Source: Marsupella aquatica (Eukaryota; Plantae; Marchantiophyta). From it: a stretch of DNA of 64,000 nt. The notes beneath the pieces are model-generated. The model was not told where the DNA came from. It searched no databases and saw only the letters and a list, made by a program, of their open reading frames with translations. Below, one piece after another: positions 10,313 to 58,791 of the stretch. The first letter of the stretch is position 1, and each line of letters starts with the position of its first letter. The DNA is taken from contig OZ316891.1 of assembly GCA_973895155.1 (NCBI GenBank), positions 17,015,651 to 17,079,650 of the forward strand. The letters run 5' to 3'. The position numbers were made by a program, and so were the translations under genes.

Positions 10313-10409
10313 CTAATGGATACCCTAAACTTGTTGTCAAAGGTTCTTAATTGTTGGTCCAATAAACTTAGTCACTGTCAATAATAGTTTTCACGCTCAC
10401 AAGGGTACA

Positions 10410-29034: not shown

Positions 29035-29605
29035 AGATTCCAAGTGATGTTGATCCCATCTCGGAGAGGCTCTCCAAAATTGAACAAGTGATGTTGATCC
29101 CATCTCGGAGAGGCTCTCTGAGATTCCAAGTGATGTTGATCCCATCTCGGAGAAGTTCTTCGAGATTCCAAGTGATGTTGATCCCATCTCGGAGAGGCTC
29201 TCCGAGATTCCAACCCAGTGTTGATCCCATCTCGGAGAGGCTCTCCGAGATTCCAACCCAGTGTTGATCCCATCTCGGAGAGGCTCTCCGAGATTCCAAG
29301 TGATGTTGATCCCATCTCGGAGAAGCTCTCCGAGATTTAAACCCAGTATTTTTGGCAATCTCGGAGAGGCTCTCCGAGATTCCAACCCAATGTTGATCCC
29401 ATCTCGGAGAGGCTCTCCGAGATTCCAAGTGACGTCGATTCCATCTTGGAGAGGCTCTCCGAGATTCCAACAATTGTTGGAGACTTTGGTGACCAATCTC
29501 GGAGAGGCCTCCGAGATTGACACAAAATAGGACGTCAATCTCGGAGATGCCTTCGAGATTGATTAAAAAGAAGGGGTCAATCTCAGAGAGGTCTCCGAGA
29601 TTGTC
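29035..29605. repeat. Array of the same 23-bp palindrome downstream of transposase B
   Basis: ~42-bp units (palindrome plus TCCAAGTGATGTTGATCCC or TCCAACCCAGTGTTGATCCC). Confidence 0.92.
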
Positions 29606-34300: not shown

Positions 34301-34554
34301 ACAGTTACGGACTTCCTAGGTTTACGATACAGGGAATTTCGATATTGAAAGAGTTGTTGTCGATGACAGGCACACTTGATGTCATCATCAAAATGGTGCG
34401 ATATGAAGGACTTCTGGGTTTCTACAAAGGGATGAGCACAAAAATTGTCCAAAGTGTCGTGGCAGCGGCGGTCCTTTTCATGATCAAAGAAGAGTTAGTG
34501 AAAGGAGCACGAGCTCTTGTTTCCAAGACTAAAAGTTCTCATGGGTATGAGTAG
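31307..34554 (+). CDS. PXN: Peroxisomal NAD+ carrier (mitochondrial carrier family), 357 aa. Exons: 31307-31387, 31672-31794, 31884-31955, 32136-32266, 32380-32434, 32968-33093, 33237-33305, 33558-33665, 33827-33895, 34111-34165, 34370-34554
   Basis: MSDAIVNGLAGAGGGIVAQLLTYPLQAVNTRQQ, GVYYYFYQ, LLTNPIWVIVTRMQ, VSNPAIQFMLYE, TYPLLVVKSRLQAKQ, GFYKGMSTKIVQSV. All introns are GT-AG and the spliced frame is open (1,074 nt). Confidence 0.93.
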
Positions 34555-35720: not shown

Positions 35721-38700
35721 CCAATAGCACAAAACATCTCTTCCATCTGTTGCACTCACAACAAATAATCTGACCTTCATACTTCCTAACCTCAAATTTG
35801 GGACCTCCTAAATATACATTCTCCTTGCTGCCATCGACAACTCTGGTAGCAAGATGCTTCTTTTACCACTTGTAGCAAGATGCTTCTTTGACAACTCTGG
35901 TAGCAAGATGCTTCTTTTACCACTTGCCTAACCGAAGAAAACTCCTCTTCCAACTTAAAGAACCACTAGCATGACAAAAACATGGCTACACATATTTCAC
36001 CATTTTTAGTATTCTTTACGGACCCCCATTGGAAGTTCCTTCCAAAATCCCTAGCACCAGGTTGAGCCACATCAGCAGGAATGGTCACAAACAAGAAAAT
36101 CTAGATGTGAAAGAAGAACAAAACCTGATGGTTCCTGTTTGTTTCCTAAATTTGTGGAGCAAGTCTCCTAGCAGAGGAGAGAGAAAAAGAGAAAAAAGTT
36201 GGGCACTTCTCTGGTTATATGGCCACTTCTCTTATTATATGGCAAAGGAGAGAGAAAAAGAGAAAAAAGTTGGGCACTTCTCTTATTATATGGCAAGTGG
36301 TTGTTTAAGCCACCTTGGTGAGAGCACTTACTCTTCCTTCATTGACTACTCCTGTGACAATCTTGCTTCAAGGTCAATGTCCTCTTCACCGACAACAAAA
36401 TCCTCCTTCAAAACACTCATGGAAAAAAATGATGATTTCCTTAACTACTAAAAAAACTCAAAATTAATTATTACTGCTTAGCCCATGAGCCTAGTATTCT
36501 AATCAAAATTCAATGAAAAACTTATTAACTTTTTGGTATGGGTGGACAAAATCTTGAAAAAATGCACATTTTGTTACGATAAGGACACCATAGCCATGAA
36601 ATGTACTCCAATCTCCAACATCACTACTACTGTTAATATTTGATACACATGTGGGGTTATAGGGAGGTAGTTATGTAACTACTCCTTAACCCCTATTATC
36701 TAGGGTTAACGGGTTAGGTTTAACTCATAACACTCCCCCTTGGTTGAATTGATTATAGCTAAAATTCAACCACATTAGGGGAAAATTTAGCCCGTAGTGG
36801 TTCCCATCGATTTGGTTTGGTCTCATCAAAACCCTTCTTCTAACTATAAGGGAAAGAGTGCCACAACCATTACATAATGTGGGATCAATGAAGGGGGAAC
36901 TATTCTTGGAGGAAATAATTAAGATTAGTTAATGTCTAATTGATCTAGAACTGTTTATAAGTTTAACCTAAGTTAAGGCGAGGCACTTATGCAGAGTATA
37001 TGAGGGATTGCTTGGGTAACTATCGAGAGGGAGAATAAGGCTAAGTGATACTAAGGAAGGGCGCCTCTTGTTAGTAAGTTTTGCTTGTAGTCTCGTAAAG
37101 GTAATGGGGACTTTATCGGGGATTAAGTCTTTGATCGGCCAGTGACGGAGTCGATGTTTAGTCCGTGGAATTTCTGGGCTGTTGCTCCGAAGGGAGGGAA
37201 TCGCATTGTAAGCAAAATATAGGTTCTTTGTTCGCTGTCGATGGCATTTTGTTAGTAGTAATGTTCGGGTTATGGACGTTGGTCTGTTGGGGAGAAAGTT
37301 CTGAATATGAGCAGAATCATAAGTGAAGGAAGTGTAAGGTGAAGCGCGAACACTTGGGCGGTGCTGTTGGATGAGGTTGTGGTAGTCATCGTTCGTTGAG
37401 TTGCAGTCTGCCTAGGAAAGATGAGTAATTTCGGCTTTCATTCTAATTTTGTTCTGTTTCTAGGCGTAATAAATCTTTGAACTGTCTCATGCCGATGCCA
37501 AATGTATGCGCTCTGTGTAGAGCGGGGGGCAGGGGCTTTGTAAATAGGAGTGGTGGACCTCGCCACCCAGCGCCCTCACCAATCCCAGCACTCGTGCCTA
37601 AGTGCCCTTGGTGCCTGAACGCCTCCACGGAATACCTCGAGCAAGCACCCTAGTGCCTCTTGCACCACCAGCGGCCCCTCCCATACGAAGCCGCACTTGC
37701 TCACCTACACGACCGCTACTCAACGGTCCTCACTGTCTGCACAAGCAATCAAGCACCTCGGTAAGTACCCCTTCAGGATCTAGAACTCGCCAAGTCTAGC
37801 ATCCTAACTCAAGCTCAACAAACGTTGGTAAATTGGTCAGCGATAGGTCCTCCCAATACCATAAGCCGGAACCAGAACCCACGCCTACTGTTCGTCCAGA
37901 ACAACTCCTTCCTTGGGCGCGGCCCGGGTTCCCCCTCATACCTATCCATCACCAACTGACCGCCCTGACCTCAGGACATGCTCATAGCCCAAATAGCGTA
38001 GCTTGTCCTAAAGCTTGTCCCAACACGCCGGGACCAGAATGGCCCCAACTCTAGCAACCGCTCCCGGTTTTCCCCACTGGTGGTCTAGGGGCCGAGCACC
38101 CTTGGAACTCAGCCTCCACACCTACTTGGCCTTACCTCCCCAACGCAAGCTCCCTTGGGAGACTGAACGCGGCTTGGCTGCTGTTCGGCAGGATTTGACA
38201 AGCGGGCGAGCTAACACCTGCAAACCACAAGAACCTATGGCACCCCCAGACCCAGCTGAGCTCAGGGCGTAGCCCTCCTCAAGAGCTTTCCAACGCACCT
38301 AAGAAGTCCTCCAACGGACTTTCTGTTGGGAAGATATCGCCATTTCCGTTTGGCGGTTTCCTTTAGTGTCGCGACCGTCGCGGCTCACGACTTTGGCTCG
38401 CCCTTAGCCCCCAGGGAGACACCACTCCCCTCATATATGATTCTGGAGACCTGCCACCCCTGGACCAGCTTTGGTCCCTAAACATTTGGCCCCCAACCCG
38501 GATCCCATCGCGCAGAATGGGCGCGCCACCAACTGGCAACGCCCATAACTTTCTTGATAGGCAACCGCAAGCGGAGTGCCTTAGCCCGTTGTGACTGGGC
38601 CGACCCAATGCTCATGCATAGGCCCTCAGGTCTGATCGCCGCTCGGGACCCCCGACCGGCCCAATCCGGATCGGACCACAACTTGTGCCCCAAGCGTCCG

Positions 38701-39466
38701 TTGCCAATGGTGTCAACTCCATTGGCCTTGGGCCCAAGAGGAGCTCACTCCCAAGCCCTCAAAACTCAAAGTCCATCCGGAGGTCCGGACGGCCATCCTT
38801 GAGTGCGGCCCATTTCCCCTTGACCCGACCAGCCATCGGCTAGTCCAAGTCCTTAGTGTGTGCCCCCAGCTTGGCTCCTTGCCTCGCTAGTTCCACGTCT
38901 CATTGCCCACAAGTCTCCCTATGCTAAGTCCTCCCTGGATGGCCTATCCGGGCCTGGACCATAAGGGAGCTCGGCGTCGGAGTCAGTGATGCCGGAGCTA
39001 AGTGTTAAGGTAGTCGAGTTCCGCGACTTGCACCCCCCCTTAAAAATGGTCACGTCCGCATGACCTCAGTAAACGTTCCACCACGCCTAGACCACTTTGG
39101 GCCTTAAAAATTTTATGGGGTAACAAATGGTTTGCCCATAAGGCTGATGCAAACCAGGTTGGTATGCGCATTCCAGACTTAGGAAATTCCAACCTATCCC
39201 ACTTATCCCAGTAGGATGCCAGTCCAAACGGGTAAGCTAACTCCAAACCCGTCGGACCCATTGTCCTCCCCTTGGGGTACTCCCCTTTGGTTCAAACCAG
39301 CCCGCCCACAGATGTAAGGCGGGCACCATCAACTTCCACTCGCAAAAAGAAAATCGGTCGCCCAACAACCTCTAGCACCAACGCAATCCGACTTTATCCT
39401 TAAGAGGTCGAGAGGAGTGAAACTAGGATACAACTCACAAAGGTAGCTACAGCTACCTATACCAGT

Positions 39467-39979
39467 TCACAACGGTGGTAGGCCGCTTCGCTTACGATAG
39501 CTTCCAAGGATCTCTGAGGCATTACCCAAATTTTCCTCCGGTTTCCAAGTACTCTCGGCCTGATCATAGCCAGCCCACTTCACCAAATACTCTAAGATTT
39601 GCCTTCCCAACTTGCGTTTGTAACGGTGGTCCAGAATTGCCTCCACCTCAAACTCCTCAGCGTCCTCCACCAGCATGGCGTCCGGACGCCAGACCTGATC
39701 CCGGTTGGGATCATCGTCTTTGACAAACTTCTTGAGCCGGCTAACATGGTAGCTTTTGCCCACGCCCATTTCCTTGGGTGTCTCCAACACCACCAAAACC
39801 GGATTATCCTTGTGGGCCCATCGTATAATGCAATAGGGCCCCGCATATCTAGGAGCCAGCTTCCTACTTATGTTCCCATGGTATTGCTCAGGTCTCAGTT
39901 GCAACCAGACGCTCTCCCCAATTTCAAAGCTTACTTGGAGTCGATGTTTATCCCCTTGCTCCTTGTACCAACTTTGGGC
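39467..39979 (-). pseudogene. Chromovirus integrase C-terminus (GPY/F motif and chromodomain)
   Basis: KLAPRYAGPY, YHVSRLK, FEVEAILDHR...EYLVKWAGYDQAESTWKPEENL. Confidence 0.9.
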
Positions 39980-40599
39980 AAGGGTCGTACCCCTGGTAGC
40001 GGGTATAGCGACGGAGACAGCAAACAGGCAAACAGGAAATACTTTTCCTGTTTGCCTTATGCTGTTACCAGGAAAAAACATCTTGTACCAGGGGAAAGAA
40101 CACACAATCAGCAGTTTAGAATTGTTGAAGTTGGAGTTAGTCCATTGCGGTGAGGGAGGATACCTTGTAATGAATTGTTGAACCACATAATAATTGAACC
40201 TTATATCCCAACACAAACAAGGGGGAGCATACATAAAAATGTCAAGGAATGCGCACAAAATGGTAGGTCCCACCACAATCGGCAACAAAATATATGAAAA
40301 TAATACAAAATCAACGCAGCCCAAAACTTTATGTCATTATGTGGTCCAAAATAAAAGCGAACAACGGATTGACTAGCGCCTGGCGCTATCTTATCGTTAT
40401 TCAAGGAAACAAATAGTTGGCGTTGAGAACATAAATCACAACACAATGACATTTAACGGTGTAGCCTAGACGAAAAATTTACCAGCGCCTGGCGCTAACA
40501 AAAAATGATGCGACATCAATAACACTATACCGTTGACATACGACAAAATCAATATAACCGTTTGGACCAATAATACAACCTACATCATCATGATTCATG

Positions 40600-43500
40600 C
40601 TATAAACGATGAGCATTTTGCCTCTCTAATATGAGCCGAACCTCTCCAACAGTGAGAATTGGTTGGCTGGTCAATGTAGATTCCTCAACGTCTAGTTTGA
40701 AAACGGTAAGGAAAATCCAATACAAATGTTTGCAAGGCATATATGGATGTTTCCGGGAATGTCGCCGGTAGAAATCCTCACACGAGCAAGTGGGGAAAAT
40801 GCAAATTTGAACAAAGTAACAATTTGGCGTCCGCATATTTTCGTGCGTTTGCACCTTAAACTGTTTTCCCCATGCATTCCCAATCGCAACATCCCACTCT
40901 CCCTGAATGTACATCGTCTGTTTTTTTGCAGACGCAATTCTGTTCATGTGACCCTGGGTAAGATTTGACCAAGGAACCGTATTCCTCCCATTCCGGCTTC
41001 GGAGATGAACATTGGGTTCGAGAAGATTCACATGTTCTGGAAAGATATTGACATTGATTCGAAGATCAAAATCTGACGGGGGTCTAGTTGTAAGTTCATT
41101 TCCGTGCACTAGGGAGATTCCGTTGTCAAGAAGATATTGCAGCTCGTCCTCCGAAACATTTGTCCCTTTCAAAACGGGAAGAACATCAAGGAAAGGGGGC
41201 AAATTCAAGACACCTCGACGCGGGCGGCTTCTGTAACATGTATTGTTTGGGCAAAACCAAATCATTTCGGTTATGGGTTCCCCCCTGAAAATCCGTTGAC
41301 CTTTGACAACAATTCCGATAACACCATGTGGTGAGGGAAATCCAACTTTTTTCACGCGATTGCGACACTCATCTCTTTCAGAATTACGAGAAAATGATCC
41401 GTTGCACTGAGGACCAGCGCCAAATTTTGAAGTTCAACGTAATTGCCATGCAGCTAGAGCAACCTCCGTCTCACGGACAGGACACTCTTGTAACGGTTGC
41501 TGAAGCACGGAGGGAGCAGTCTGGGGAAGCCTCGTTGAACGCGTTTGGTCTCGAGCAGGAGGGGTATTGAAATCGACATCTTCTCCACCACCCGATATGT
41601 CACTTCCAGACAGATTAACAACAGGATCAACTTGAGGCGTGGGGCCAGGGATAGCATCAAACGCCATGCGATTAAGATTCTTCCTTTTCATCGATCTAGT
41701 ATTGGGCGAGGTGACAAGGATTTTATCATGCCTATGGGAGTCTTGTGGCGAGATATTCCCAGATGCATGTCCTTTCCTCTTCAAAGACTTGGTGACAACG
41801 TCTCCATTGAGAGGTGCACGTCTCTCCAAGTCAAACTCGGCAGCGTTGGACAGTAGCATATTCATTGCGTCTTCATACAACTTGGGGGAGCCTGCTTGGT
41901 CCGCTGATCGGAAAGCGAGTTCCCAAATTGTGGGACCTTTTCCTCTATGCAACCCTTTCCGATACGCAGTGTAAGCAGCAACCTGAGAAATAGCTCGATT
42001 TTGGTCCATTTCACATGCCTCAAAGAGCCCAACCTTTTTCTTCATTACCCATGCTTTCATACCTGCGTGCACGGACTCTGATCCTGTACAATTAGGAATC
42101 TTAGCCCCTTCTTCGACACTCTTGTTCTGCAATCACATAGAATAAAGTGTCTGTTACAGAACAAGAAAACACTAGCGTCGGGCGCTAGTGAAGTGGACTC
42201 TATCCTTAGAAGTTAAAACTGGCACTGTACATTAAGGGACAACTTATTTCGTCCTATTGTGTCATATGACAGTTTGAATAAATGATAGCGCCAGGCGCTA
42301 GTATTAAAGGATGCTATGGTATTGTAATATTTGAATATGGATACAAACATTTTGAAATGAGAATATAGCACTGCAATACCTAAAGAGCGGAAAGCAAAGT
42401 AAACTAACTTACCAAACGAATAAAATTTCCCCATTGTCTCCACCTGACGACCCACCATGAAATCCAACTCTGGAGCATCCGGAGCTTCCCGAGGACACAG
42501 TTACCCGACTGCCACCACAAATCAATCTCCCTTGAAATTCTGTAAGCCTCTACAAACGTGGGGGCATTTCGCATCTTATCCCAAAGCCTACGATGCTCTG
42601 CTTGACTATCTTCAATCACTCCTTCAATCGAATGGCGATGGAAGGCTTGGTAGAAATGGAATGCGTCAGTTCGCTCACGCTCAGGGTTTGGATGCCCTCC
42701 AAAAAAGACATTTCGGACTGCCAGCCAACCAGCTTGAGCATTGTCCGCCATGAATCCATGAATAATCGGATTTTCTAATCCATTCTCTTTGGACACCTCA
42801 ATCATTAGTCTCCAAGCCTTCTCGAACGACTCTGTATCCTCTGCTTTTAGTTCGCAGGTGAATAAGGTACACAAAGCGCGATAGTTGTGATCATAAATAT
42901 GCGCACTAAAAGTAACCCAGTCTTTTGTAAGCCGTTTCATCACATCAAAACTTACCCAAGCACCTTCGAGACTTCCACCAGGTTGCATTTGTCTCAAAAG
43001 ATCGACGCCTGATCCATGGCCGATCGAAGTCATCTTGAATATGTGAGGACGGTCTTCTTGAGATCCTTGACCTGGTAGGAGGTACCTTTGGAGGAAAGGC
43101 ATGTTGATATTTCTTTGATACCGAACAAGAAAATCTAGTTCACCTCGACCTTTCTGGTCTTGTCTAACACTACGAAAGAGGGACGCAAACTTCTGGGGTG
43201 TGGAAACTACCATGAGAGACTCAAATATCTCTGTTTCTTCAATATCTTGAATATCTTCCATACTTTCACACAAGGACTTTACAAAGGACCCTGTCGCCAC
43301 ATTTTTTACACCAGCAGGGGTGAAAATTGGATTTCCTTCCAATTTCTTTTTGATAACCTCCTCAACAATCTTCTCTGCGCTCCGAGAAAACACCTTTCTT
43401 GAAGGATGGTTGTGGATCCCCATATGAATTGCCAAGCGGGACATGTGAGTACAGGTTTCTGAGTCAACTAGAACCTGGGGGTACATGTAAAATAACCTTG

Positions 43501-44417
43501 CTGGACAGGATTGGACACAAAACGGAACTTGATCACAAAATTGGCAAACAACTCCACCTTCGTCAATGAAGGAGCCAACACGATGTTGCCCGCCAAGTTT
43601 GGGGGTTCCACCCCAGGCCTTCTGGTTCCTCCTTTTCTTCCGCTGAAAATAGTCGCACGTATTATTCCTACACTCAATGGAACCAGTGCACGTTACTTTA
43701 CCAAATTCCCAATATTTCTTGGTATGAACATTAGCTGATGTAGGAAATATTCTGGTCCAGATGTAGCAATCCTTTGACCGGTCCATGTCGCGTAGACGTG
43801 ACCCCTTCGAAAGAGCTGTCGTCGCAGGAGGCAACTCGAATACAATATTTCCATTGTATTTCTTTGGCAAATAGTCAACTTGTTCATGGAAGAAGTCCCC
43901 AGCCGCGATGAACCTCAAGATTTCACTGGAACCAGTTGACTTGAGAATGGTATCCATTGCACTTCTCCGATACACAATGGAATTTTTGGTAAAAACTGTT
44001 GTAACCTCTTGTTTAACAGGGGTAACCTCCTGTTTAACAATGGTGTGAGGGGATTTAGCACTATGCTCAGGCAAAGCACGTCCATCATCGTCGCTATCTG
44101 AAAGCAGGACAACATCAACAAAGGGTTTGGATGAAGATGGGAGATCATGCGACTGGTTTTCGAATGACAATAGAATACCGAATTCCTGCATTCAGGTGCC
44201 AAAAATGAATCCCGTCATCAACATCAAAAGAAGCAGTGGAATTAGACGCTTCATCTCCATTTCCCTCCTCCAAAATGTCCTCAATGTCGTTCAAATCCAA
44301 ACCAAAGCGCCCACAGAGATAATTCTCACTAACTTGCTTGTATACGTCATTGGCCGACAATGGAATGGATACAAGGTCACCGGTAGACGGACGCGTCAGA
44401 ACGATTGACCTCGACAT
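40600..44417 (-). pseudogene. Mutator-like transposase, copy A3 (GCM-like Zn domain, DDE, SWIM); exons 44417-42413 and 42126-40600
   Basis: CTGSIECRNNTC...CQFC...SCPAR...IHMGIHNHP; WVSFDVMKR (D1), GFMADNA (D2), DAFH, NCTGSESVH (E); CSCEDF..PCKH. Frameshifts near 44160 and 41400. Confidence 0.85.
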
Positions 44418-44662
44418 TTTAAGATCATCCAACCCAAAAACACTCAGTTCACGATAATGAATGACGTCTTCGAATGTACACAATGGTATTCATAGTGAAT
44501 AATCCGTTTGTCAGAGCCGTTATAATACGACAAAAACACTACTGGTCGAAAGCACATCTGACACAATAAATGTTTTTTGTCGTTATGTCAACGACATTTA
44601 CACTAATGAGCCTAAGATGTCCGTTTCCAAAGAGCATAATCATGATAATTAAATCATGTTAA

Positions 44663-45048
44663 TTGAGTAGCGCCCGACGCTACTCAAACATCCTACCTTC
44701 AACATGGACCCAAAATGGTGAAATATATGAGTAGCGCCAGGCGCTACTCAAACACACACCGTAAATTATGGTATAAAACTGGTATGTTTTATCCGGGGTT
44801 TCAGAATAAATACTAAATGTTTGTAGCTAATTTTTTTAATATTATCTAAAATATTACCAAAATGTGCCCATTTAATATTAGCGTCGGGCGCTAATCCAAA
44901 ACGGTAATCATGACATTCATTTATGGAAAAATATTCAAAAATTGTATTCATTTGGCTTTTTATTGTATACTTGACAGCAATGTTGACCTAACTTTGGGAA
45001 ATTTTATGGTTTAAATTGTGATGATTTTGAGTAGCGCCTGGCGCTACT
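44663..45048. promoter_or_regulatory. Cluster of four TAGCGCCNGGCGCTA palindromes in the divergent intergenic region
   Basis: Copies at 44668, 44732, 44879 and 45032; two have extended arms (TTGAG..CTCAA 44663-44687; TGAG..CTCA 44728-44750). A regulatory role is inferred. Confidence 0.55.
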
Positions 45049-45376
45049 ATTGACCAATATCCGATTTGAACTAGGAATATATATTAAATTCAACGAACTG
45101 TTCTTTAACGGTCATATTCAACGGTAACGTTAGGTCGCGTAACGTCGAAGATATGCCAACGGTATTCGGACAACTAATCCAGAATTGACAAGTGGTGCTC
45201 AAGAGATAGAAATCAATGTAGCAAGGGGATAGTTTAGAGATGATACTCTCCCCCCCTCCCTTGTCCGCTGTATTTAGGTTCCGTTTCGGAGGTTCTTCGT
45301 GCAAGAATTCTCTAGAAGAAGTACGGTACGAATGAGGTACTCATCACGATCGTGAAGCACTTCGTGTCTGAGAAAC

Positions 45377-48300
45377 ATGGACCTTCTCCCCACTACCTCG
45401 CATGGGTATAGTGCTAATGGGCAGAGAGAGCAGATCCATTCGCAGACATCCGAGTGCTCGTTTTCTGGATCTGTTTACAATCGTCGAGTGACACGGTCTA
45501 CAACATCCCAAGCTCCCAAAATAGTCTCTGTAGTCACATTTCCGAAGAGCAGGAGAGCGAAGATGGACGATCTCAACACATACGCTGTGGAAGATCGAGG
45601 AGAAATGTCGCTGACGATGTCCAACGTTATCTCCAAGCACGTTATGGTGTTTGGCAAAGATTTTCGAGGGCACGACAAAGACCCCCCAAGGATTCCAATG
45701 TGCCGCTTGGTTCACATGGAAGTTGTCCGCACCTTACAGAAGGGAAGTCCTTCAATTGAAAAGTTGAAGGACTCTTTTCGTAGCACAGGATACAACTCAA
45801 AAATCGGAATGTTATTCTATGTCCAGCCGACAGATTCGAATGGGAATGTCCAGACGTGTACTCCAGAAATTCGAGCTTCCTGGGACCCGATGTGGGTGGC
45901 CGAGAACGAGAAGTTTGAAGCTGAATGTGCGGCCGATCCAGACTTCATGGTGTTACAAGATAAGATGTTTTACATTTTTGACGGTAACCATCGACTTTAC
46001 ACATGGTCGATCGTTACAAAAGAAAATCCGGAAGATATCAAGTATCACCCGCGTGTGCAATGTACTATCTTCAAGGGTGAAAAGGGATCTTTGATTGAGA
46101 TTGAGGCGGCTATGCATACTGTGAACCAGTAAGTCTCTCGTTGAATTTCACTTATCCTTATCTTTTATAGTGTAGTTTTTACTAGCGCCTGGCGCTATTG
46201 ACTGACAAATTCTTCTGTAGACTTGGACAGGCCGTGGTGGAACCTTCCTGGATACTTGATGCAGACCGAATTAAGAGGATTTTGTCCAATGATCTAGAAT
46301 ACTACAAATCAATCATCGATGGGGCAAACTTCAAGAAGTTTGGGCAGGTGATGCAGAAGACTCGAAAAGGATCGTGGTATTCCAAGAAAATGCCTCAAGA
46401 AGCACTTCTGTATATCTTATGCGAGAATAAGATTAAATCCTATTCTCGACAATTCAAAATGGACATGGAGTCGGCTACCGCTCAGGGAAATCCTTGGTCT
46501 CGGGAAGAGACATCCAAACGACATGCGGTCATGATGAAAGAAGCAACGAACGATTGGGCGATCAAGGTCTCAAAGATCACTCCCTTGTTGAGTCCAGAGT
46601 TTGAAGACTTCATGACAACCTGTGCTGAGATGTATTCGATGACCGAGGTGAACAAACGCGAGAAGAAACTGGATGCGGTTGTCTGTACCATGGATCGTGC
46701 CAGGTTATTTACAGCAGTCTCCGCCCTTGACCCCAAATTGAGGAGCACTTTGTTAGTAGCGCATTGCACGCCAGAGCTCAGGAAGCAGTTCTTTCATCCA
46801 CAAAGTGTTAGTGATGACCCTGTGAAGCAGTGGTGCCACACTTGGCAAACTTGGAATAGCGTGGAGGGAATTGCTATTGGTATGCTGTAGACTGCCCTCC
46901 AGAAAATCAGTGAAATAATTCCTTCCAATCGATTGGAGGAATGGAAGTGTGAGTCTTATGATTCACTCATTGAAATAGTGTGCAATGATTTCAAAAAATT
47001 TGGGGATGCAGTGAAAGGTAAGTTTTTCAATACAATGTGGATGTCCAAGTACCCGGACAAGGAAGACTACACACTCAAGAATCAAAAGCGAGCGAAACGA
47101 TATGTCTATCGTTTCTTCATGCACATGGAGATTGTGAAGCCTGACTATTTTTGGGCTTACCCAACTGCTTTCCAGAATTGGGTCATCTGCGCAGATGGAG
47201 ACATTTTGGCCGAACTGTATTCGATGTATCCGGCTAAGGGTATACTTCCACCGAGGAAATTGTCAGAGTGGGAGAGAATTCACTGCCCTTGGTATCTTGA
47301 CACCGATAGATGGGATTCTCCTTTTGACGACACTGAGAAGGATGCTTTCCATAAACTGTCTAAATCCCAAGTTCCGAGACAATTTGTCTCCGACATGAAG
47401 CAAGGAATTGAGGGAGACGTCAACTCGTCGACGACTGAGTTGCAAAAAAAATGTGAAACCACAGTGGTTCATGTTGATCGAAGCCGAAAACCAAGAGCCA
47501 AAGCCAAGGCGGATGCCCCTGTGGCAAGTGCTAGTGCCAAGTCTGGGAAAAAACGTAAGCTACACCTCCTTTTTCCAACTTCCTTCTTTGTTAGCGCCTG
47601 GCGCTATCATGTGTCGTGAGTTTAATGTGTCATATTTCCCAAAATTAATGTGGGTGTTTGGTCAGCGCCTGGCGCTAACACTCTTTCTGTGCTTGACACC
47701 ATTTTGGGTAGGTGGTCGAAAATCTGATGCCGCCACGGATGACACAAAAGTCGATGCAACACCAGAAGTCTCTGAGGCCAACACTAGTGCCAATCCAGAC
47801 CCCATCACCCCTGTTGAGAAGGGGAAGGTTATAGTTCCTGTGGATGCTACAAGCACAAAGAAGAAGAAGAAAAGGACCGTCGATGTCTGGGAATCTTCGC
47901 GAGATAATGCTTCTGGGGCCGGTATCCAACGGGATGTGGGGACTTTCAAGACCAAACTCGGAAGACACTGTATGGTTGAATCAAGCTTGGCAGAATTTAT
48001 TGATAGTGCATTTAGTAAGGAAGAGAAGCCAGATTGGGTCTCAGACGCTGAGAAGTGGGGTAAGGATTTGATCAAATCGGGGTGTAGAGATAAAGGAATC
48101 ATTCGAGGTGGGAAGGAACGATCATTTGGGGTGAATGCGGGTTTCATCTATCTCCCAACTGGTTTGAAACCCACAATTGTTGACCGTCGGGTCCCGAAAT
48201 GGAATGTCACAGATCACACAGCAGCCGAATCATTCTTTCGGGCGATGGACCCTTTCCTTTCCGATGACGGAATGCTCGCTATCTTATACTCGGATGACCA

Positions 48301-49529
48301 CGATCAGATTTCCCAGGTCATTTCTGCATGTCAGCAATCCAAGAAGTTCATGTGCATCAATACGCACAACGTTTTCATGTCTGTCCCAATGTACAGATCC
48401 AAGACAGATGTCCAGGTAAATATTCTCTCTCAGTATAGCTATACTAGCGCCCGGCGCTACTCTTTCTTTCTTAGGAGGTCTTCTCTCTTGAGTAAAAGAT
48501 TTTTGAAATCCAGTTGGTTGGTCAACTTTTGCAAGTCTTCACTCTTAGACTGGACATATTTTGTCGAGTTTCTTTTAAAGGAAAGGTCCCAAAGGATCCA
48601 AGATTCAAGCCATTATCTAGCGCTGAAGATCCTTCAATCTCGAACCTTATTGGGCTACAATCTTTGAAGGAAGATCATTGTCCTGAACTCCATTTTATTG
48701 GGAATTCCCGACTGCCGGTTGGTTTTATGCAAACTGTCCTTGAACTCTTTACAATACCTAAGGATATTGTAATTGATTGGACCGTCGGCTCAGGTAGTAC
48801 GTTCATTGCTGGGGATTACTCGGGCCGTTTTGTCATCGGGTTAGAAAATCGTCTGGAGTTTGTTGAGACCGCTTTGAGGATTTTTTTGGACCTCATTTCT
48901 CCCAACCCTTTGGAGACACAACCTCCCCCTCCTCAAATAACCGGACGAAAAAAGAAAGATAGACTTAGATCTGTCCTCAACTTTGATTCGAACGAAGATG
49001 ATGGGACGCCAGAAGATGATGTTCCTGAGGATGTCAATGACGGCGGGAAAGAGGAAACCCGACATGATGGGTCAACGGAGGACAGCGAAGAGTCTTCCGA
49101 GTAATTTTCGTCTCTCGTAAGCTCCTTTATCCTTTCAATTGTTGGCTAATCTTCAATTCCGCCAGTTCTATCGGTTAAGTACTTACTTCCTCTTTCTCTT
49201 CTGCTTCTCTTTTGAGCAGGTCAGAATGGAACCAAAGAAAATGGTTTCAACTCCGGAGGAAAGTGGCTCGAAATATAATCATCACTCCCGAGAAGCCGTT
49301 TGTATTGCCATCATACGCTGAGAACGTCGCGAGGAAGGTAGAGAAATTTAGAACGCTCTGCTGGGAAACAAAAGGACTTAGGCTTCTTAGGGGAGTAGAC
49401 AGGAAGTTCATGAGGAACCCCTACGTAGATAATGTTTCTAGAAGCAAGTATATTGATGATGAGGCAGAGTCGACCGACAGATCTCATAGCTCCCAGAATG
49501 AGAGCTCAGAATCTGACTCTGAAGGGTAG
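45377..49529 (+). pseudogene. ParB/Srx-like domain + helical region + beta-class N4C/N6A DNA-methyltransferase-like domain, ~1,228 codons. Exons: 45377-46128, 46221-47554, 47712-48415, 48514-49100, 49220-49529
   Basis: ParB-like FYIFDGNHRLYTW; MTase-like FLSDDGMLAIL and RLPVGFMQTVLELFTIPKDIVIDWTVGSGSTFIAGDYSGRFVIGLE. GT-AG introns keep the frame; one in-frame TAG at 46888-46890. Confidence 0.75.
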
Positions 49530-50605
49530 CAATTTTCTCCTCTCTCAGGTCAAACTTCCTCCCAACTGTACGAGTATGCCCTTGGTTTTTGTTAGCGCCG
49601 GGCGCTATTGAATTTATTAAAAATGAATTGAGTTTTAGGGATGTTGCCCCTTCCTTTCAATGGTTAATGTGGTCTTGAGTACCGTCCTTTGTGTGGGTTC
49701 CTCGGCTTGGTTAATTGGCGCCCGCCGCTACCCAAAAAACACGTCGGAAGCTTCCGTTTGTTATTTGTCGTTTCTGCCCTAGTGTCATTTGGCTTTCACT
49801 CGAAGACTGGTACCGACAAGAGGACCTATAACGATAAATCCAAGCCCCTTATTGACATACTATTGTTTCTTTCAAAGTCCATTTCTCTTATTTTTCTCCT
49901 TCTTGATTCCATGGAAGGCCAGTTTATCAATGGCCCACGAGAGCATATGTCAACTTCCGATTAGATGGTTTCCACCAAGATCCAGATTGTCAGGACTCTG
50001 GGATTGATGATGAATGTCACTCTTCGAGATAGGACATTGTACGAGGAGGCACCCACCGGGAGTGTTAGCGCCTGGCGCTAGTTACAATTGTTCTGGAAAC
50101 TTTAGTGTTCCTAAGTAGAAATATTTGTACACCGAGGACAATATGTTTCACTTAAATAAAAAATCTCGGGTTTCTTTTCTTTCAATTTCCCTTTAGAAGT
50201 TATGACTCAGATACCTTGGTTAAGTCCTACTTCCGTGCTTTGATATTGAACTTAGACTATTATTAATGTTTGGTTTCTACTTGGATCTCAGCCTGAACAT
50301 CAATCCTAGGTTCTCGTGATTTTCTGCACAAAGAATTGGAAGCAGCCGACTCTAGTATTCGGCATGTTTGGGCGATTAATGTGTCATTATTTTGGGTTTT
50401 AACGCCCGGCGCTAGTATTCGGCATGATGCGTTTGTGATTATTTTTCCTGTAGACTCCCGACGCTAATATTTGGCATCGCATAATTATCAGTATTTTAGG
50501 AACGGATTTTTTTAATTTTGCCACAATACCAGGAGAAATGTGCTCCCAAAACAGGAAATTTTGTTGTTACCAGTTCCTGTTATATTTTGCTGTTTGCTGT
50601 TTACT

Positions 50606-53600
50606 GCCTTTTGTAAACACCTCCTGGTAGCCGCTTCCACAACTAGGCGCCGCTCTCGAATAAAATTGTCTACGGAAGGAACCTTGCTTTCCGTCCGCCA
50701 AGCTTCCGGATTTATAAACCAACACAAATGGCGTAAACCCCGTCGCCAAATGCTTGGTCAAGTTATACCTAAACTCGGCCATCGTTAAGTGCTTTGCCCA
50801 ATCCTTTTGATTGGTCGTCACAAAGTGACGCAAGTAGTCCTCCACGATACCATTAACCCGTTCCGTTTGGCCATCTGTCTTGTGATGATACGCTCATCCC
50901 CTGGCCAGGTCCGTTCCGGATAACCGGAACAACGCCTTCCAAAAATGGCCCGTGAACTTGGTATCATGATCGGACAGGATATGCAACGGCAATCCCCATT
51001 GTCGGAAGACATTGTCAAACACTAGACCGGCAACCTCTTGGGCCGAAGTAGGCAAGAAATACACCATCTTGGAAAATGATCCACGATGGTCAAGATGGAG
51101 TTACAGCCGTGGGACTCAGGTAACCCAACAATGAAGTCCATGGAGATAGACTCCCATGGAGCCGCAACTACTGGCAAGGGTTGCAACAGTCCTCCTTTTG
51201 CCCTATAGACCGTTTGGTTCTTTTGGCATGAGTAACAACTTTGCACGTGTTGAAGGACCGATTGCTTCATTCCAGCCAATACACATCTCGCGACATGCTG
51301 CGATACATAGCGGCTTGTCCTCCATGCCCTCCCCAGGGCTAGTCGTGGTACTTTTGCAGAACCTCTAACCTTAGAGACTCTGGTATGTACACACGCCTCT
51401 GCTTGTATCACCATAACTGAACATTATGCATCGTATCCAACCCCAATGATACATGCCTTACCTTGCCTTGGCTACCCCCATTGCTTTGCCATTCCTTAGC
51501 TAACCTGTCATCCCCATACGCCGCGGCCAGAACCTTTGGCCACTCGGATTTGAGCATCGTGATCCCATTGACACGATGTTAGTCCTTACGCGATAACGCA
51601 TCCGCTGCCGTATTTGTCTTCCCTGGAACGTGGCGGACTTCAAAATCAAAATCCGCCAAGAACATCTGCCAGCGCATTTCCTTGGGGTTCAGTCTTGGCT
51701 TAGAACTGAAATACCCGGCCGACGAGCTATCTGTGTGGATTACCACTTTGGGACCGTTCTTAAGGTAAATCTCCCACTTCTTCAACGCATAGATCACAAC
51801 ATACATTTCCCTTTCCGGTGTGATCCAATGATTTTCCAACTTACATGACTCAAAGGCCACAGGACGCCCATCTTGGCAAAGACAGGCGCCAATGGCGTAA
51901 TCACTTGCATGTGTCCAAATCTCGAACGGTTTCCCATCTTAGGTAACTTTAGAACCAGCGGCGTTATCATTAGCCACTTAAGTTCCAGGAATGCTAACTC
52001 GCAATCCTGAGTCCACACAAACACTTTGTTTTTCAATGTTAGCGCGTTTAGGGGCCTCGCGATCCTTGCATAGTCTTTCATGTATCTTCGATAGAACTCC
52101 GTAAATCCTAAGAAGGCTCTAACCTGCCTTACATTGGACGGGCGCTCCCATTCTTTGATCTCCTTAAGCTTGTCCTGACTAGGCGTAATCCCTTCCAGGG
52201 TAAAGGTATGGCTGAGGAACTGAATCTTGTTCATCGCAAACTTGCACTTGCTAGGTTTAGCAAAGAGACAAGCCTTACAAAGGCGAGAGAACACTTCTCT
52301 GAGCAACTGCTCATGTTCCTCCAACGTTTTTGAGTAGATTAGGATGTCGTCAATAAAGACGACCACTCCTTGGTCCAACAAGTCATGAAAGATGGTATTC
52401 ATCATCTTCATGAACATTGCGGTTGCATTACACAACCCAAACGGCATAACCAAAAACTCATAGGATCCGAACCTTGTGCGCATTGCGGTCTTATACTCGT
52501 CTCCCTTAGCCATGCGGATCTGGTAATACCCAGACCGCAAGTCCACCTTTGAAAACTTCTTAGCTCCGGAGAGGCAATCGAAGAGGTCATCCATATGAGG
52601 TAACGGGTACTTGTTCTTTATCATTTGCTTATTGAGTGCCTGGTAATCTGCGCACAATCTCAAAGTACCATCCTTTTTGGACAAAAACAGTGTGGGCGCC
52701 CCGTAAGGACTCTTACTAGGGCAAATGAACCCTTGGTCAATCAACTCTTCCAAGGCGTTCTTCAACATTATTCGCTCGTTCAGGTTCAAACGATAAGGAG
52801 CTTTAGCCTGAGGAGCCGATCCCGGCTCCAACTCAACTTGGTGATCCACTTCTCTCCTCGGGGGTAAACCTTTAGGTAGCTTCTGCGAGAGCATGTCGTT
52901 GAATTCCTCTAAAATTTCAGGAATTCGACCGCAGTCAGGCCTGACCTTAGCTGACTTGACCTTTGGCTGCGAAACAGCCTCCTTAGTTGGGTGGAGATGA
53001 AAGAAGAAACATTCATGTCCACCCTTGAAGTCTTTCCACCATTGCTTTGCCGATACACACGGAGACAACCATGACACTTTACTTACTTTGAGAAATCTTT
53101 CTTTATTTTTGGTAACTTCGTGTACAACGATGGGCTCACCACCCTTATTGGGAAAATGGAGCACCTCACCCCCCGGTTTCAAGGTAATATTGTGCTTTGT
53201 GAGATAACCTACCGACAAAATGAAGTCTACGGCTAGACCGTCTAGAACGTAGAACATCTCCTGACTAACAAAATTTTGTTGCTCGCCTATGACCTCTACT
53301 CAAAGTCTATGTACCACTCTCGACACTATCCCCTTTGTGTCGTTGGAAAACTTGCACACTAACGGTTGTAGCAACTCTTGCACGTCCACCCCAAGACGTG
53401 TTGTCGCCTGCCCACTTATGAAGCAGGCGGTCGCGCTTGTATCCACCAACGCAACACCCAGACTACCGTTAGAAGTGACATTCACAAAAATCAGTTTTTC
53501 AGGATCCATTGTCTTAACCTTAGGTATCTTCTCTTGCAACAACCCCCTCTCTCCGGCAGGAACATCCCCTATAGGGACTTTGTCAGCTACTAAGGGTTTG

Positions 53601-54684
53601 GTTAGAGCGATACTTACCTTAATGCTCTTCTGCCCTCCACCATCTCCGCTCGGCTTGCCACCTTTCGTGGAACAATCCTTACTTTGATGGCCCATGACAC
53701 CACATGTGAAGCACAAACCTTCAGCCCGCCTTTGCTCCATGGTTGCCTGCTTCTTTGCTTTTTGGGCCGATGAGGCTCCTTTCTTGAAGTTGTCGGCCTT
53801 CCGGTTTTGCTTAGCTTCTCCATTCAGGGGCTAAGAATCCGAACCACCGCCCCCCGCCCCCTCAGGTTGCTTACGCTTATTCCCAAACCTTTCGCTTTCC
53901 CAGCTTTCCCAGCTTCCCCCTCGGATCCCTTGCCACCCACCTTCACCAAGTCCGTTCGGTTGTTCACCAACATAGTGGCCTTGTCAAAGGCGTCAGAAAG
54001 TGTTTTGAACTCATGACACTTTTCCTGCAACTTTTCCCTTAGCAACGGCGGGAGCTTCACGATAAAGTTGTGAAGCTGTGTATGCAGGGTCTCTTGTCCT
54101 GTCGGGATACACGCCAACTGATTCTAGTAATAAGTGATGAACTTTTGGATATCACCCCTGAAGCTCATCTCCGTTACACATTTTTGAGCGTGCCGCTCTG
54201 GGTACTTAGTGGTGGCATGAGCACAGAGACTCTCAACCAGGTTTTCCCAAGTTAACGGCAAGGAGGAGTCCTCTCGCGACTTCTTCCATGACTTGTACCA
54301 AGTCAAGGCATAGTCCTTCAGGTAAGGAGCGGTTGCGGTAGCCCAAGTGGAACGCTCAATGCACGCTTGGAGATGAATCTCCATCGTGGAGAGCCAACTC
54401 AAGAACTTTTGTCCACTTTGTTTGTAGGCCCCATCATAAGTTGGAGGAGTCGGTAGCTAGTTCACTTGGAACATACTTCGTCCAACTACCATTCCCCCCT
54501 CAAGACACGACGCACTCTGACTACCCAAACTAAGTAAGTACTTAATCTGGGCCCCCTTGTTGTGTTCCAACTCCTCATAGATGAGTCGTTGGTCTTGAGT
54601 CAACGGACCCAGACCGTCGTCAGCGGCCGGGCCCTTGCGGTTGTATGAGGACGGTCCTCCAACCGTCGTTCCTTTGCGGGCCAC
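50606..54684 (-). pseudogene. Chromovirus gag-pol (Gag, CCHC, protease, RT, RNase H, integrase core), degraded
   Basis: CFTCGVMGHQSKDC; VALVDTSAT; KVDLRSGYYQ, YEFLVMPFGL, VFIDDILIYS; ADALSR; PWESISMDFIVGLP. Many frameshifts. Confidence 0.92.
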
Positions 54685-57374
54685 CTGTCCTTAGGTTCTC
54701 TTGTGGATTTTGGTGATACCCCCCGTGTCTTGCAAGCACCATGACCTCCCGGGACTGAGGTATCACCTGCGTCATCCTGGTTTTGCTTGGTCAAATTATC
54801 CACGATGACGTCCGGCTTGACATCATCCTTTGGTTCCGCATTCAACCCTCTCAAGGTTGGGATCAGTTCCTCCTCTGGGTCCTGACCCTCTTTCTCTATT
54901 TCGGCTTCAGCCTCGTCGTCGCTTCCTTCTACGTCGGAGTCGTCGTCATCCAACCCATCCTCTGAAGGATTAGCCACCTCCTTCCCTTTAAGTCGACGGC
55001 GCTCTACACTTGACGTGTTCGCCGCAGCGGTCAACGGTTTGGCCATTGCGTCTTCTTCGTCCTACTTATAACGTTTGTCTAGGGAAGTTGACCCGTCCTC
55101 CTTCTATTCATCTTGAACTTGGGCTCTCCCCTTGGTGGGGGGAGCCTGTTTGCCACTCTTTGATTGAGTGTTTTTAGCCATGTTCCCAGTGCCCGAATCT
55201 GCCCGCAGTCAACCCGCCGGGCACGTTGAAGCACTAAGTCCCCGCAAAAATCCGTTAAGATTTTTGGATTCCGACTTAGCACAACCCCGGCCCGGTGTCT
55301 ATGCCAGCAATCGTTCTGATACCACAAGTGGTGGACCTTGCCACCCAGCGCCCTCACCAATCCCAGCACTCGCGCCTAAGTGCCCTTGGTGCCCAAACGC
55401 TTCCATAGAATACCTTGAGCAAGCACCCTAGTGCCTCTTGCACCACCAGCGGCCCCTCCCATACGAAGCTGCACTTGCTCACCTACACAACCGCTACTCA
55501 ACGGTCCTCACTGTCTGCACAAGCAACCAAGCACCTCGGTAAGTACCCCTTTAGGATCTAGAACTCGCCAAGTCTAGCATCCTAACTCAAGCTCAAAATA
55601 CGTTGGTAAATAGGTTAGCTATAGGTCCCCCCGATGCCATAAGCCGGAACCAGAACCCACGCCCACTGTTCGTCCAGAACAGCTCCTTCCTTGGGCGCGG
55701 CCCGGGTTCCCCCTCATACCTATCCATCACCAACTGACCGCCCTGACCTCAGGACATGCTCATGGCCCAAATAGCGTAGCTTGTCCTAAAGGTTGTCCCA
55801 AGCTTGTCCCAACACGCCGAGACCAGAACGGCCCCGACTCTAGCAACCGCACCTGGTTTGCCCCACTGGTGGTCTAGGGGCCAAGCACCCTTGGAACTCA
55901 GCCTCCACACCTACTTGGCCTTACCTCCCCAATGCAAGCTCCCTTGGGAGACTGAACGCGGCTTGGCTGCTGTTCGGCAAGATTTGACAAGCGGGCGAGC
56001 TAACACCCGCAAACCACAAGAACCTACGGCATCCCCAGACCCAGATGAGCTCAAGAGGGCGTAGCCCTCTTCAAGAACTTTCCAACGCACCTAAGAAGTC
56101 CTCCAACAAACTTCTTGTTGGGAAGATATCGCGATTTCTGTTTGGCGGTTTCCCTTAGTGTCGCGACCGCCGCGGCTCACGACTTTGGCTCGCCCTTAGC
56201 CCCCAGGGAGACACCACTCCCCTTATATATGCTTCTGGAGACCTGTCATCCTTGGACCAGCTTTGGTCCCTAAACATTTGGCCCCCAACCCGGATCCCAT
56301 CGCGCATAATGGGCGCGCCACCAATTGGCAACGCCCATAACTTTCTTGATAGGCATCCGCAAGCGGAGTGCCTTAGCCCGTTGTGACCGGCTGACCCAGT
56401 GCTCATGCCTAGGCCCTCAGGTCTGATCGCCGCTCGGGGCCCCTGACCAGCCCAACCCGGATCGGGCCACAACTTGTGCCCCAAGCGTCCGTTGCCAATG
56501 GCGTCAACTCCATTGGCCTTGGGCCCAAGAGGAGCTCACTCCCAAGCCCTCAAAACTCAAAGTCCATCCAGAGGTCCGGACGTCCATCCTTGAGTGCGGC
56601 CCATTTCCCCTTGACCTGACCAGCCATCGGCTAGTCCAAGTCCTTAGTGTGTGCCCCCAGCTTGGCTCCTTGCCTCGCTAGTGCCACGTCTCATTGCCCA
56701 CAAGTCTCCCTATGCTAAGTCCTCCCTGGATAGCCTATCCGGGCCTGGACCATAAGGGATCTCAATGTCGGAGTCAGCGATGCCGGAGCTAAGTGTTAAG
56801 GCAGTGGAGTTCCGCGACTATAGGTCAGCCCTATTATCTTTTGTTGGAATCCACTTAACCTGGGTCTTCTCTTGATGTTGTTCGTGTGCGTAGAAGAGCT
56901 TTGGGGCAATGTGTTTGATTCTGTCGCCCTTGATAAAGCCTTTTATCTAACATTTCACTAACTCTGGAGATTGTTTTGTCCAAAGTTGAAGGATGAAATT
57001 GCCAAAACATTCATTTCAAAAATCCAAAAAGGTGATCTGAAATTTCCAAAACCCAAAATTGAAGTTTCCAAAAGCATACTTTTAAATTTCCAAAACCTAG
57101 TCCATTGGATGAATTACGAAAGGCAATGAAAAAAGGACTCCTTCAAATGAATGACTGAAATTACATCTTTATAATAAATGGGACACTAACAGTGGTGCCG
57201 TACATATAATTTGATATCCCTTCATGGTACTTCATTGTTGGGTTTTTTGCTAACTACAACATCGTCTTCCGCTAAAGTGACTACAAAGTTGAATCTCAAC
57301 CTTGGCCAACACATATTTGACTAGACAACTACACTAATCATATCAAGAATATATGTGAACTAACAAATGAAGGA

Positions 57375-57965: not shown

Positions 57966-58670
57966 CTATTTTTTATCTTCAGCCAAATTCAGACTGGACC
58001 ATTTTGGAGTGTTTCGCCACAAATACACACGCACATCTCTTGCCAAGGCTAACTCCTGCAACACTGGTTGAAGTTTGTTGCTTATAAACGTATCTGCAAG
58101 GAAACCATTATTATTGCCGTTGAAGCAATCACAAAACAGCGTCGAGTATTCGGGGTTAAAGAAACTTCTATGAGGTAAATCATCAAGAAGGATGGTGTTG
58201 CTGTCATTATAAAGTGCGCTTGTCCGATCTCCATTTAAAACGAGGTCATCCCAAATATTTTTCAGTAATTTCACAAAGCAATTTTTCCCTTTGTTTCTTC
58301 CAGCCACATAAAATATCCCAGTCAACAAGCTCCAGTTCTCACAAAGACAAATCAATGCTTCTTGTTGGGAAACACTTTCTCCAAAATCTCATGCACATTA
58401 TGATATTAATACAGTACAGGACCATATCCCCACATCAAATGTCTGAAGACACCATTCAACGAAGCGCCGCATTCCCGGTCTTACATAGATGATTCTATTC
58501 TTTAGAAACAATGTTTCCCCATTTTCAGTATTTATATCTCTAAGAGACTTTGCTCGCACGCCCGATATTTGCACAATATGTAAGACGACATTCATCTCAA
58601 GTACGAGCAGTTTACGAGGAACGGTGTTTTGTATAATAGTTGCCATATCGTATGTTACAATATCTGCAGT
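57966..58670 (-). pseudogene. FCP1/NIF-like HAD phosphatase domain, frameshifted
   Basis: RKLLVLEMNVVL, YVRPGMRRFVEWCLQTFDVGIWS, YNDSNTILLDDLPHRSFFNP. The catalytic DxDxT is degenerate. Confidence 0.7.
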
Positions 58671-58791
58671 GACAAAACAATAAATGAACATCGATATCAT
58701 AAAGTCAATGCAAGAGCGTAACATCAATTACGACGCATTGCAGCGTATGGAAATCTGACGATAACCTATTCCACAGGAGAATCGCGTAGAT

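Follow-up and report, generated by a model that had tools for sequence, protein, structure and literature searches.

In a 64,000-nucleotide stretch of the genome of the liverwort Marsupella aquatica (contig OZ316891.1, positions 17,015,651 to 17,079,650, hereafter the window, numbered from its first letter), we encountered a 10,622-bp Mutator-like transposon that carries, head to head with its transposase gene, a cargo gene whose product is predicted to join an N-terminal ParB/Srx fold to a C-terminal beta-class amino-methyltransferase fold. The non-coding parts of the same element hold 16 copies of a 15-bp palindrome, TAGCGYCNGRCGCTA. Because this anatomy matches the plan of the VANDAL transposons and their VANC proteins, and because the palindrome suits a dimeric protein of the ParB type, we tentatively favor the hypothesis, as a possibility rather than a probability, that the cargo gene encodes a VANC-like, element-specific DNA-binding accessory protein that would use a ParB-methylase module of prokaryote type for counter-silencing, and that is probably not a classical DPPY or SPPY writer. 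The gene family itself is real and conserved, and it is apparently undescribed.

The limits of the element (40001..50622) can be set precisely since the same 9-bp direct repeat, CCTGGTAGC, lies on both sides (39992..40000 and 50623..50631, + strand), and since the minus-strand frame of a Ty3/gypsy integrase is unbroken across the site when the insertion is removed. An earlier interpretation of this DNA, made without database searches (the sequence-only reading), had recognized that the element interrupts a chromovirus integrase. The continuous frame bears this out, as do the SH3_Tf2-1 (E 3.7e-9) and Chromo (E 3.9e-16) domains found by Pfam in the C-terminal part of the integrase to the left (39467..40000, - strand); part of the integrase core lies to the right (50632..50893, - strand). 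The right end had been placed at 50605, and the position of the right-hand repeat moves it to 50622. The retroelement that was interrupted (37549-56000) has two long terminal repeat (LTR)-like sequences about 17.8 kb apart that are 94-96% alike, and it contains several stops.

Mutator-like elements (MULEs) typically duplicate 9 bp of target DNA (range 8-11 bp), as is seen here. The long terminal inverted repeats (TIRs) of many such elements are lacking; instead, the ends are short and imperfect and share a short gapped similarity, which fits the non-TIR type represented by VANDAL. Given the 9-bp duplication, the motif pattern of the transposase and the weakly alike ends, the element is best called a non-TIR Mutator-like transposon, an assignment of the transposase made without a library match. 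The earlier identification of a Mutator-like element with an accessory gene, here seen to be conserved, is upheld. A nearly exact second copy of the left end stands at 60526 and a looser one at 2657, and Rfam returned no match between 36000 and 64000.

The cargo gene spans 45377-49529 on the + strand and, as had been proposed, splices through four GT-AG introns into 1,228 codons with a single internal stop at codon 474. Exon 1 (45377..46128) encodes the predicted ParB/Srx-fold domain, which is of the DGQHR/DndB type (IPxCR..VR, DGNHR, AMHxxN). Exon 2 (46221..47554) carries the stop (46888-46890) and encodes a conserved middle region that is all-helical in the structure model; the fold search gave no clear match for it, with helix-turn-helix rows at Z about 4. 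Exon 3 (47712..48415) encodes a Lys-rich linker followed by the N-terminal half of the predicted methylase fold, with YLPTG at the place of motif IV (Tyr codon at 48149). Exon 4 (48535..49100) supplies the S-adenosylmethionine (SAM)-binding half (DWTVGSG) and then an acidic tail. Exon 5 (49220..49529) is joined by a frame-preserving splice and encodes the C-terminal tail. It is the least supported exon, and BLAST found no match to it among the 167 proteins compared.

Evidence on other copies comes from contigs of four public runs, which are 80-100% identical to the element and together cover all 30 bins into which it was divided; no contig spans the whole element, and contig depth is not a measure of copy number. 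At 46888 these contigs carry a C in all depth of the three runs (of four) that cover the site, which removes the stop. At 48534, G is present in all contig depth of all four runs, and the acceptor at that position is mutated in this copy, where exon 4 starts at 48514 after an alternative acceptor at 48513. The family's intron-3 acceptor is therefore probably the canonical one at 48534, giving 1,221 codons, and the earlier intron structure stands for this copy but would need this amendment for the family. The transposase gene is broken as well, by a stop at 41434-41436 that is missing from 97-100% of the contig depth in three public runs, and by a frame break near 44147. Because these stops and the mutated acceptor are absent, or for the transposase nearly absent, from the contigs of other copies, we conclude that the family has multiple copies and that this one has decayed. 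Exon 2 aligns with paralogues from the liverwort Riccia sorocarpa at 24-29% identity on both sides of the stop.

The product of exon 1 is predicted to adopt the ParB/Srx fold. This prediction comes mainly from the model of a relative, P0155, which is confident over residues 10-330, with predicted local distance difference test (pLDDT) values mostly above 90 for residues 26-177. With an exhaustive structure aligner, residues ~20-180 matched KorB-CTP (Z 7.0, root-mean-square deviation 2.8, 93 aligned residues), PadC (Z 6.5), the Pnob8 plasmid ParB (5.8) and Srx (5.4), followed by SerK and SbnI. With Foldseek, the same model gave weak but concordant matches to ParB, Noc and sulfiredoxin, always short of E 0.001. 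The motif DGNHR, taken in the sequence-only reading as a ParB/Srx signature, thus coincides with such a fold in a relative. Exon 1 is 38% identical to a ParB-like domain of Riccia, and the GxxR phosphate-binding motif is evident across the alignment (G in 134 of 143 rows, R in 117 of 141), as are the Arg preceding it and the closing Asn (101 of 115 non-gap rows).

Sequence libraries recognize this domain poorly. Pfam found no ParB or DUF3723 match among 63 members. Searches of PDB sequences with exons 1 and 3 and with the ParB profile found no true match. The TIGR03187 DGQHR model matched exon 1 at E 0.068 and L004, a distant relative described below, at 3.5e-5, with scores far below the curated cut-offs; Atlas scores for exon 1 were 0.94-0.95 for DUF3723 and 0.92 for ParB_N. 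The D-G-x-H-R motif and the closing Asn are shared with the DGQHR/DndB-type ParB domains and with fungal DUF3723. The weak DGQHR and DndB matches and the DUF3723 look-alikes therefore suggest a divergent branch of the ParB/Srx superfamily. Elsewhere in the window (61461-62453, - strand), an open reading frame (ORF) contains a second, divergent set of ParB/DGQHR-like motifs recognizable by eye (ERLL..HV, ISGQHLTMA, HANN); it could not be aligned to the cargo family and had no library match.

The C-terminal half of the cargo protein is predicted to have the beta-class amino-methyltransferase fold. Exon 4 matches Pfam N6_N4_Mtase (PF01555, E 4.9e-8) at positions 163-219 of 221 only, which is the SAM-binding end of the profile, and residues 41-230 of the Riccia paralogue P0175 match positions 16-217. 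The circular permutation of the beta class, wherein motif IV comes first and motif I last, is present, and the Atlas comparison also favors this class. Profile and fold searches with the methylase part placed CcrM first (E 3.3e-6), then M1.HpyAVI, M.BceJIV and MboIIA, and exon 4 resembles M1.HpyAVI, MboIIA and CcrM. The SAM-binding motif I is DWTVGSG here and D[FY]xGG in all 22 alignment rows that cover it. UniRef names some of the Riccia paralogues 'trimethylguanosine synthase', a label that we set aside, since the domain order is that of a beta-class DNA methylase.

The catalytic motif is peculiar. Among 47 rows examined, 31 lie above the alignment score cut, and 23 cover motif IV. Rather than the canonical (D/N/S)PP(Y/F/W), the Riccia rows read D[LM]P[ST] (20 of 23) or D[LM]SS (3 of 23), with an aromatic residue in none, and the SPPY of DN4MT1 and N4CMT is absent from every row. 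The copy in the window reads YLPTG, with Tyr in the Asp position, and when the profile is built from Riccia rows only, its dlpsg falls on YLPTG (E 1.4e-6). We infer that this is motif IV because it closes the first strand and is followed by the V-VI pattern. In N4CMT, according to the accessible text of one study, activity requires both the Ser and the Tyr of SPPY, and changing SPPY to APPA abolishes it (PMC8885841). Because the aromatic residue missing here is needed for catalysis in known enzymes, classical methylase activity of the cargo protein seems doubtful. The beta-class pattern noted in the sequence-only reading took in the SAM-binding half alone, and the catalytic motif departs from the canonical form. 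The link to Marchantia-type N4-cytosine (N4C) methylation that this reading implied is not sustained, as S/DPPY is absent here and in 23 of 23 Riccia paralogues covering the motif, and the enzymes that match best in structure methylate N6-adenine.

The cargo gene is conserved across many lineages, judging from its alignable relatives. A search with exon 1 gave 244 representatives (50% clustering) at E up to 0.001, 89 of them at 1e-10. These relatives, together with the contigs from all four runs, counter the possibility that the gene was captured by chance in this one copy. Thirty relatives, picked mainly by length, were looked up: nine are from Riccia sorocarpa, six from Adiantum, and 15 have no organism given. 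The R. sorocarpa protein P0153 (1,207 aa, KAL3677308.1) is collinear with cargo exons 1-4, and the fern proteins P0146, P0141 and P0115 have the same N-terminal domain and parts of the methylase, all four being automatic gene models. With the methylase part, 26 of 358 candidates matched, and all are R. sorocarpa paralogues on several chromosomes. The position of intron 1 is identical in three further relatives (L001, L002 and L003), and 55 of 150 matches stop right after the conserved Asn that precedes this intron. Exon 1 and its L001 counterpart differ more at synonymous than at nonsynonymous sites (pS 0.87, pN 0.42). In a tree that took in 78 of 148 rows, with short rows omitted, the window domain joins the main Riccia clade (support 95/81), and the ferns stand apart. 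Judged by such relatives, the host would probably be a liverwort or some other non-seed plant.

Scans that reach close relatives only found none among 84 viral and 27 prokaryotic contig candidates. A metagenome scan yielded four of 321 candidates, all shorter than 4.4 kb and none with a transposase. Word-index searches with exons 1 and 3 retrieved no longer proteins, although such proteins exist. A prokaryotic origin of the cargo module is suggested by the predicted folds and by domain order only. No description of the cargo family was found in the literature covered, which included the accessible parts of PMC6446971, PMC13229309, PMC10853773 and PMC12344493, with supplements, subscription papers and Repbase outside its scope. 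The relative L004 (383-666, 707-2695, 3115-3235) is a distant, apparently eukaryotic DGNHR gene that also matches DndB (E 3.7e-4). The locus has three copies of a hairpin repeat of ~115 bp, which stand upstream of the gene and in what is likely an intron. L004 also contains a stretch that looks methylase-like, but it was rejected as a family member because the family profile gave no alignment to it.

The transposase gene (40600..44417, - strand) has an intron at ~42127-42412. By eye, its product shows a Cys/His-rich N-terminal region, the motif D..D..DxxH..E (D 42952, D ~42745, DxxH 42667, E ~42078) and a C-terminal SWIM-like finger (40788), which together we take to be the Mutator-type pattern. 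No match was found in Pfam, NCBIfam or PDB, and a paralogue gave a weak SWIM match (E 0.037). Two diverged relatives of the transposase are present in the window. The closer (1-2657, + strand, 66-80% identity) belongs to a sister element, present here as its 3' part and terminus, the latter related to that of our element; the two transposases differ by pS 0.77-0.89 and pN 0.15-0.21. The more distant (15641-16520 and 25203-29600, 32-45% identity) is broken and split by other insertions, with short direct repeats upstream at ~15150-15500. A short non-autonomous derivative (60526-~60890, + strand) has two degenerate palindromes and a left end nearly identical to that of the element; a target duplication was not found for it.

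When up to two mismatches are allowed, the window contains 21 copies of the palindrome TAGCGYCNGRCGCTA, where 0.12 copies are expected. Sixteen are in the element, four in the sister element's end, where these TAGCG palindromes have equivalent positions, and one in the short derivative. All 16 element copies are confined to the 32% of the element that is non-coding (p ~1e-8 to 2e-8). Exact TAGCG-N5-CGCTA is found 12 times, compared to at most three copies of any palindrome family in 60 shuffles. In 12 of the 16 copies the core reads CCNGG, and bacterial N4C methylases use sites of this type. Two palindromes lie downstream of the transposase gene (40374..40497; starts 40374, 40483), two in its intron (42173..42300; 42173, 42286), four in the divergent intergenic region (44668..45046; 44668, 44732, 44879, 45032), four in cargo introns 1-3 with none in intron 4 (46183..48459; 46183, 47592, 47663, 48445), and four downstream of the cargo gene (49593..50414; 49593, 49716, 50066, 50400).

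The distant sister element lacks TAGCGYCNGRCGCTA. Instead, a second palindrome, ATCTCGG-N9-CCGAGAT, is arranged in tandem in the equivalent intron and downstream, with 27 copies in the window and none in the element described here. The tandem arrays that accompany the distant transposase relative are built on a 23-bp palindrome, ATCTCGGAGAG-N-CTCTCCGAGAT, and a further array is found at 8900-10400. The cargo relative L001 has two copies of ATCTCGG-N9-CCGAGAT in its intron 1 (0 of 2,000 shuffles), which indirectly ties cargo gene, transposase and subfamily-specific palindrome together in a second lineage.

These characteristics closely recall the VANDAL elements of Arabidopsis. Like this transposon, VANDALs are described in the accessible part of PMC5735166 as Mutator-like elements with weak ends and an accessory gene, VANC, and with an element-specific motif concentrated in introns, between genes and in the terminal regions; VANC21 lies in the same parts. 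That motif varies between subfamilies and can form tandem arrays (PMC5735166). The enrichment of an element-specific motif in non-coding parts is reproduced here, and the analogy with VANC, already drawn in the sequence-only reading, gains support from these palindromes, which that reading had missed. The parts differ, however. VANC proteins contain DUF1985/DUF287, for which Pfam gave no match in any exon or relative, and act with a 9-bp non-palindromic motif (PMC5735166, accessible part), whereas here the folds are predicted ParB and amino-methylase folds, and the candidate site is a 15-bp palindrome.

If the cargo protein is indeed such a counter-silencing factor, it would dimerize through the ParB domain in a nucleotide-dependent manner and dock on the two-fold symmetric palindromes. 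Canonical ParB CTPase clamps possess a helix-turn-helix domain in the center and a dimerization domain at the C terminus, and they bind NTP, close and slide away from their palindromic site; which nucleotide is used does not follow from sequence. The methylase fold, having kept its SAM-binding loop and lost the aromatic residue of motif IV, would grip DNA or shield CG and CHG sites and would not methylate them. The outcome would be a local loss of silencing at the promoter, introns and ends, as for VANC, and protein and palindrome would change together between subfamilies. Inactive adenine-methylase domains on transposons have a precedent in DIRS elements, as reported in the accessible text of PMC4738411.

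Several observations weigh against this hypothesis. The Z-scores for the ParB fold are all below 8, the model of the methylase is of poor quality (mean pLDDT 47.6), and with a second aligner its N-terminal half matches Trm14, IF3-C and Alba equally well (MboIIA Z 6.2). The register of motif IV relative to solved enzymes comes from pattern, secondary structure and aligned ranges, with no residue-level superposition; the Riccia tally represents one genome, near-duplicates included; and the fern relative P0146, which falls below the score cut, reads DVPFG and so keeps an aromatic residue. No repeated palindrome was found in the 1.8 kb examined of the cargo relative L003, and no cargo gene was detected in the window with the distant sister element that has the second palindrome. 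The ratio of observed to expected CpG is 0.83 in the element, slightly above the 0.67-0.78 of the flanking retroelement. Finally, the accessible portion of bioRxiv 2026.08.24.746577 reports that cognate copies can be bound and activated by transposases themselves.

One alternative, which we consider unlikely but worth serious attention, is that the cargo protein is an active, atypical N6-adenine or N4C methylase. It would be loaded by its ParB domain under nucleotide control and would mark its own element on or close to the palindromes, and this mark would block or replace host 5-methylcytosine (5mC). The conserved SAM-binding motif, the Asp and Pro of motif IV kept in Riccia and the fern DVPF would be compatible with activity, and the best matches (CcrM, M1.HpyAVI, M.BceJIV, MboIIA) are active beta-class enzymes. 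The CCNGG core resembles sites of bacterial N4C methylases, of which CCSGG is named in the accessible text of PMC8885841. Partial texts further report that MpDN4MT1 adds no N4 methyl group to 5mC (bioRxiv 2021.02.12.428880) and that C5 methylases borne by retrotransposons are active (PMC5890265). Opposing this are the lack of an aromatic residue in 23 of 23 Riccia rows, the Tyr at the Asp position in this copy and the lack of SPPY in any row. Moreover, the R. sorocarpa nanopore methylome under strict filters yielded 4,071 calls of N6-methyladenine (6mA) versus 404,506 of 5mC, with N4-methylcytosine (4mC) not reported in the accessible part of that study (PMC11735767).

It is rather unlikely, in our estimation, that the palindromes are transposase-binding sites and that the cargo protein has no silencing role, serving transposition in another way such as end synapsis, target choice or nucleotide sensing. 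This explanation would draw on the Cys/His-rich region of the transposase, which we presume to bind DNA. The derivative at 60526 retains one end and two degenerate palindromes, and the sister element has tandem palindromes with no cargo gene detected in the window. The AtMu1 transposase alone activates cognate copies (bioRxiv 2026.08.24.746577, accessible portion). On the other hand, the distance to either end exceeds 600 bp for 12 of the 16 palindromes, and cargo introns contain four of these. Moreover, two-fold symmetry in a site fits a dimeric protein of the ParB type, as is established for parS. Far less credible is that a host gene or fragment was captured by chance, as in Pack-MULEs, and is decaying neutrally. 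The stop and dead splice acceptor in this copy would be explained, and the transposase matches none of the 198 proteins compared. But the defects are private to this copy, the public contigs cover all 30 bins in all four runs, all 26 methylase-domain matches are dispersed R. sorocarpa paralogues, intron 1 has a common place in L001-L003, the L001 comparison shows the synonymous excess given above, and the element's own palindromes sit within cargo introns.

Outside the VANDAL group, the closest counterparts are the ParB-N6_N4_Mtase fusions of phages and prophages, which likewise combine an N-terminal ParB fold bearing GxxR with a C-terminal beta-class amino-methylase (bioRxiv 2025.10.10.680097; ParB-Tls loci, PMC4738411; both in part). 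Such fusions are frequent in phages, and the main text of the survey, as far as accessible, contains neither 'plant' nor 'transpos' (bioRxiv 2025.10.10.680097). Unlike them, the cargo protein has ~1,220 aa, a long helical middle, spliceosomal introns in its gene, a plant DNA transposon as its carrier and a non-canonical motif IV. A review of eukaryotic adenine methylases describes, in its accessible text, a haptophyte clade from ParB-terminase loci, inactive DIRS domains and few such enzymes in land plants (PMC4738411). Marchantia MpDN4MT1a/b and N4CMT of bdelloid rotifers are also prokaryote-type beta-class amino-methylase folds in eukaryotes; compared by description, they are encoded by the host, carry TSPPY/SPPY and have been proven to write 4mC, and the accessible accounts mention no ParB domain. 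Methylase domains are carried by DIRS and other retrotransposons as well (PMC4738411, PMC5890265, both in part), and the DIRS adenine-methylase copies are thought inactive, but these are retroelements with PCIF1-like or C5 enzymes, for which the accessible texts describe no ParB fusion and no palindromic sites.

Other features of the window include an Ulp1-type protease (57966-59268, - strand; Peptidase_C48, E 3.8e-30) with a broken NIF-like phosphatase after it, possibly the cargo of another transposon. Two related sets of long coiled-coil ORFs (5398-8341, - strand; 10471-14166, + strand) belong to no clear Pfam family, and one adjoins a reverse transcriptase of the long interspersed nuclear element (LINE) type. 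The last exon of a host gene of the mitochondrial carrier family lies at 34177-34554 (+ strand; Mito_carr, E 3.6e-8).

Transposon-encoded counter-silencing factors are few (VANC, TnpA and the AtMu1 transposase), and all are from flowering plants in the literature covered, as far as its accessible texts go. The family described here adds a candidate found in liverworts and ferns. Its predicted enzyme folds are recognizable and its candidate target site is evident, making its mechanism directly testable. If our favored hypothesis is true, the ParB nucleotide-switch fold, known in eukaryotes chiefly as sulfiredoxin, would extend to a chromatin role, prokaryote-type amino-methylases would have had a further route into plants, and natural pairs of protein and palindrome might serve as tools for sequence-specific epigenome editing. 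A bolder version, which we regard as improbable, is that DNA transposons widespread in non-seed land plants have a parS/ParB-like chromatin system, wherein a nucleotide-gated clamp loads at subfamily palindromes and spreads over the 10-kb element, and the methylase fold shields it from host 5mC or overwrites that mark. If true, this would be a eukaryotic sliding-clamp epigenetic regulator that originated in prokaryotic mobile elements and whose protein co-evolves with its palindrome.

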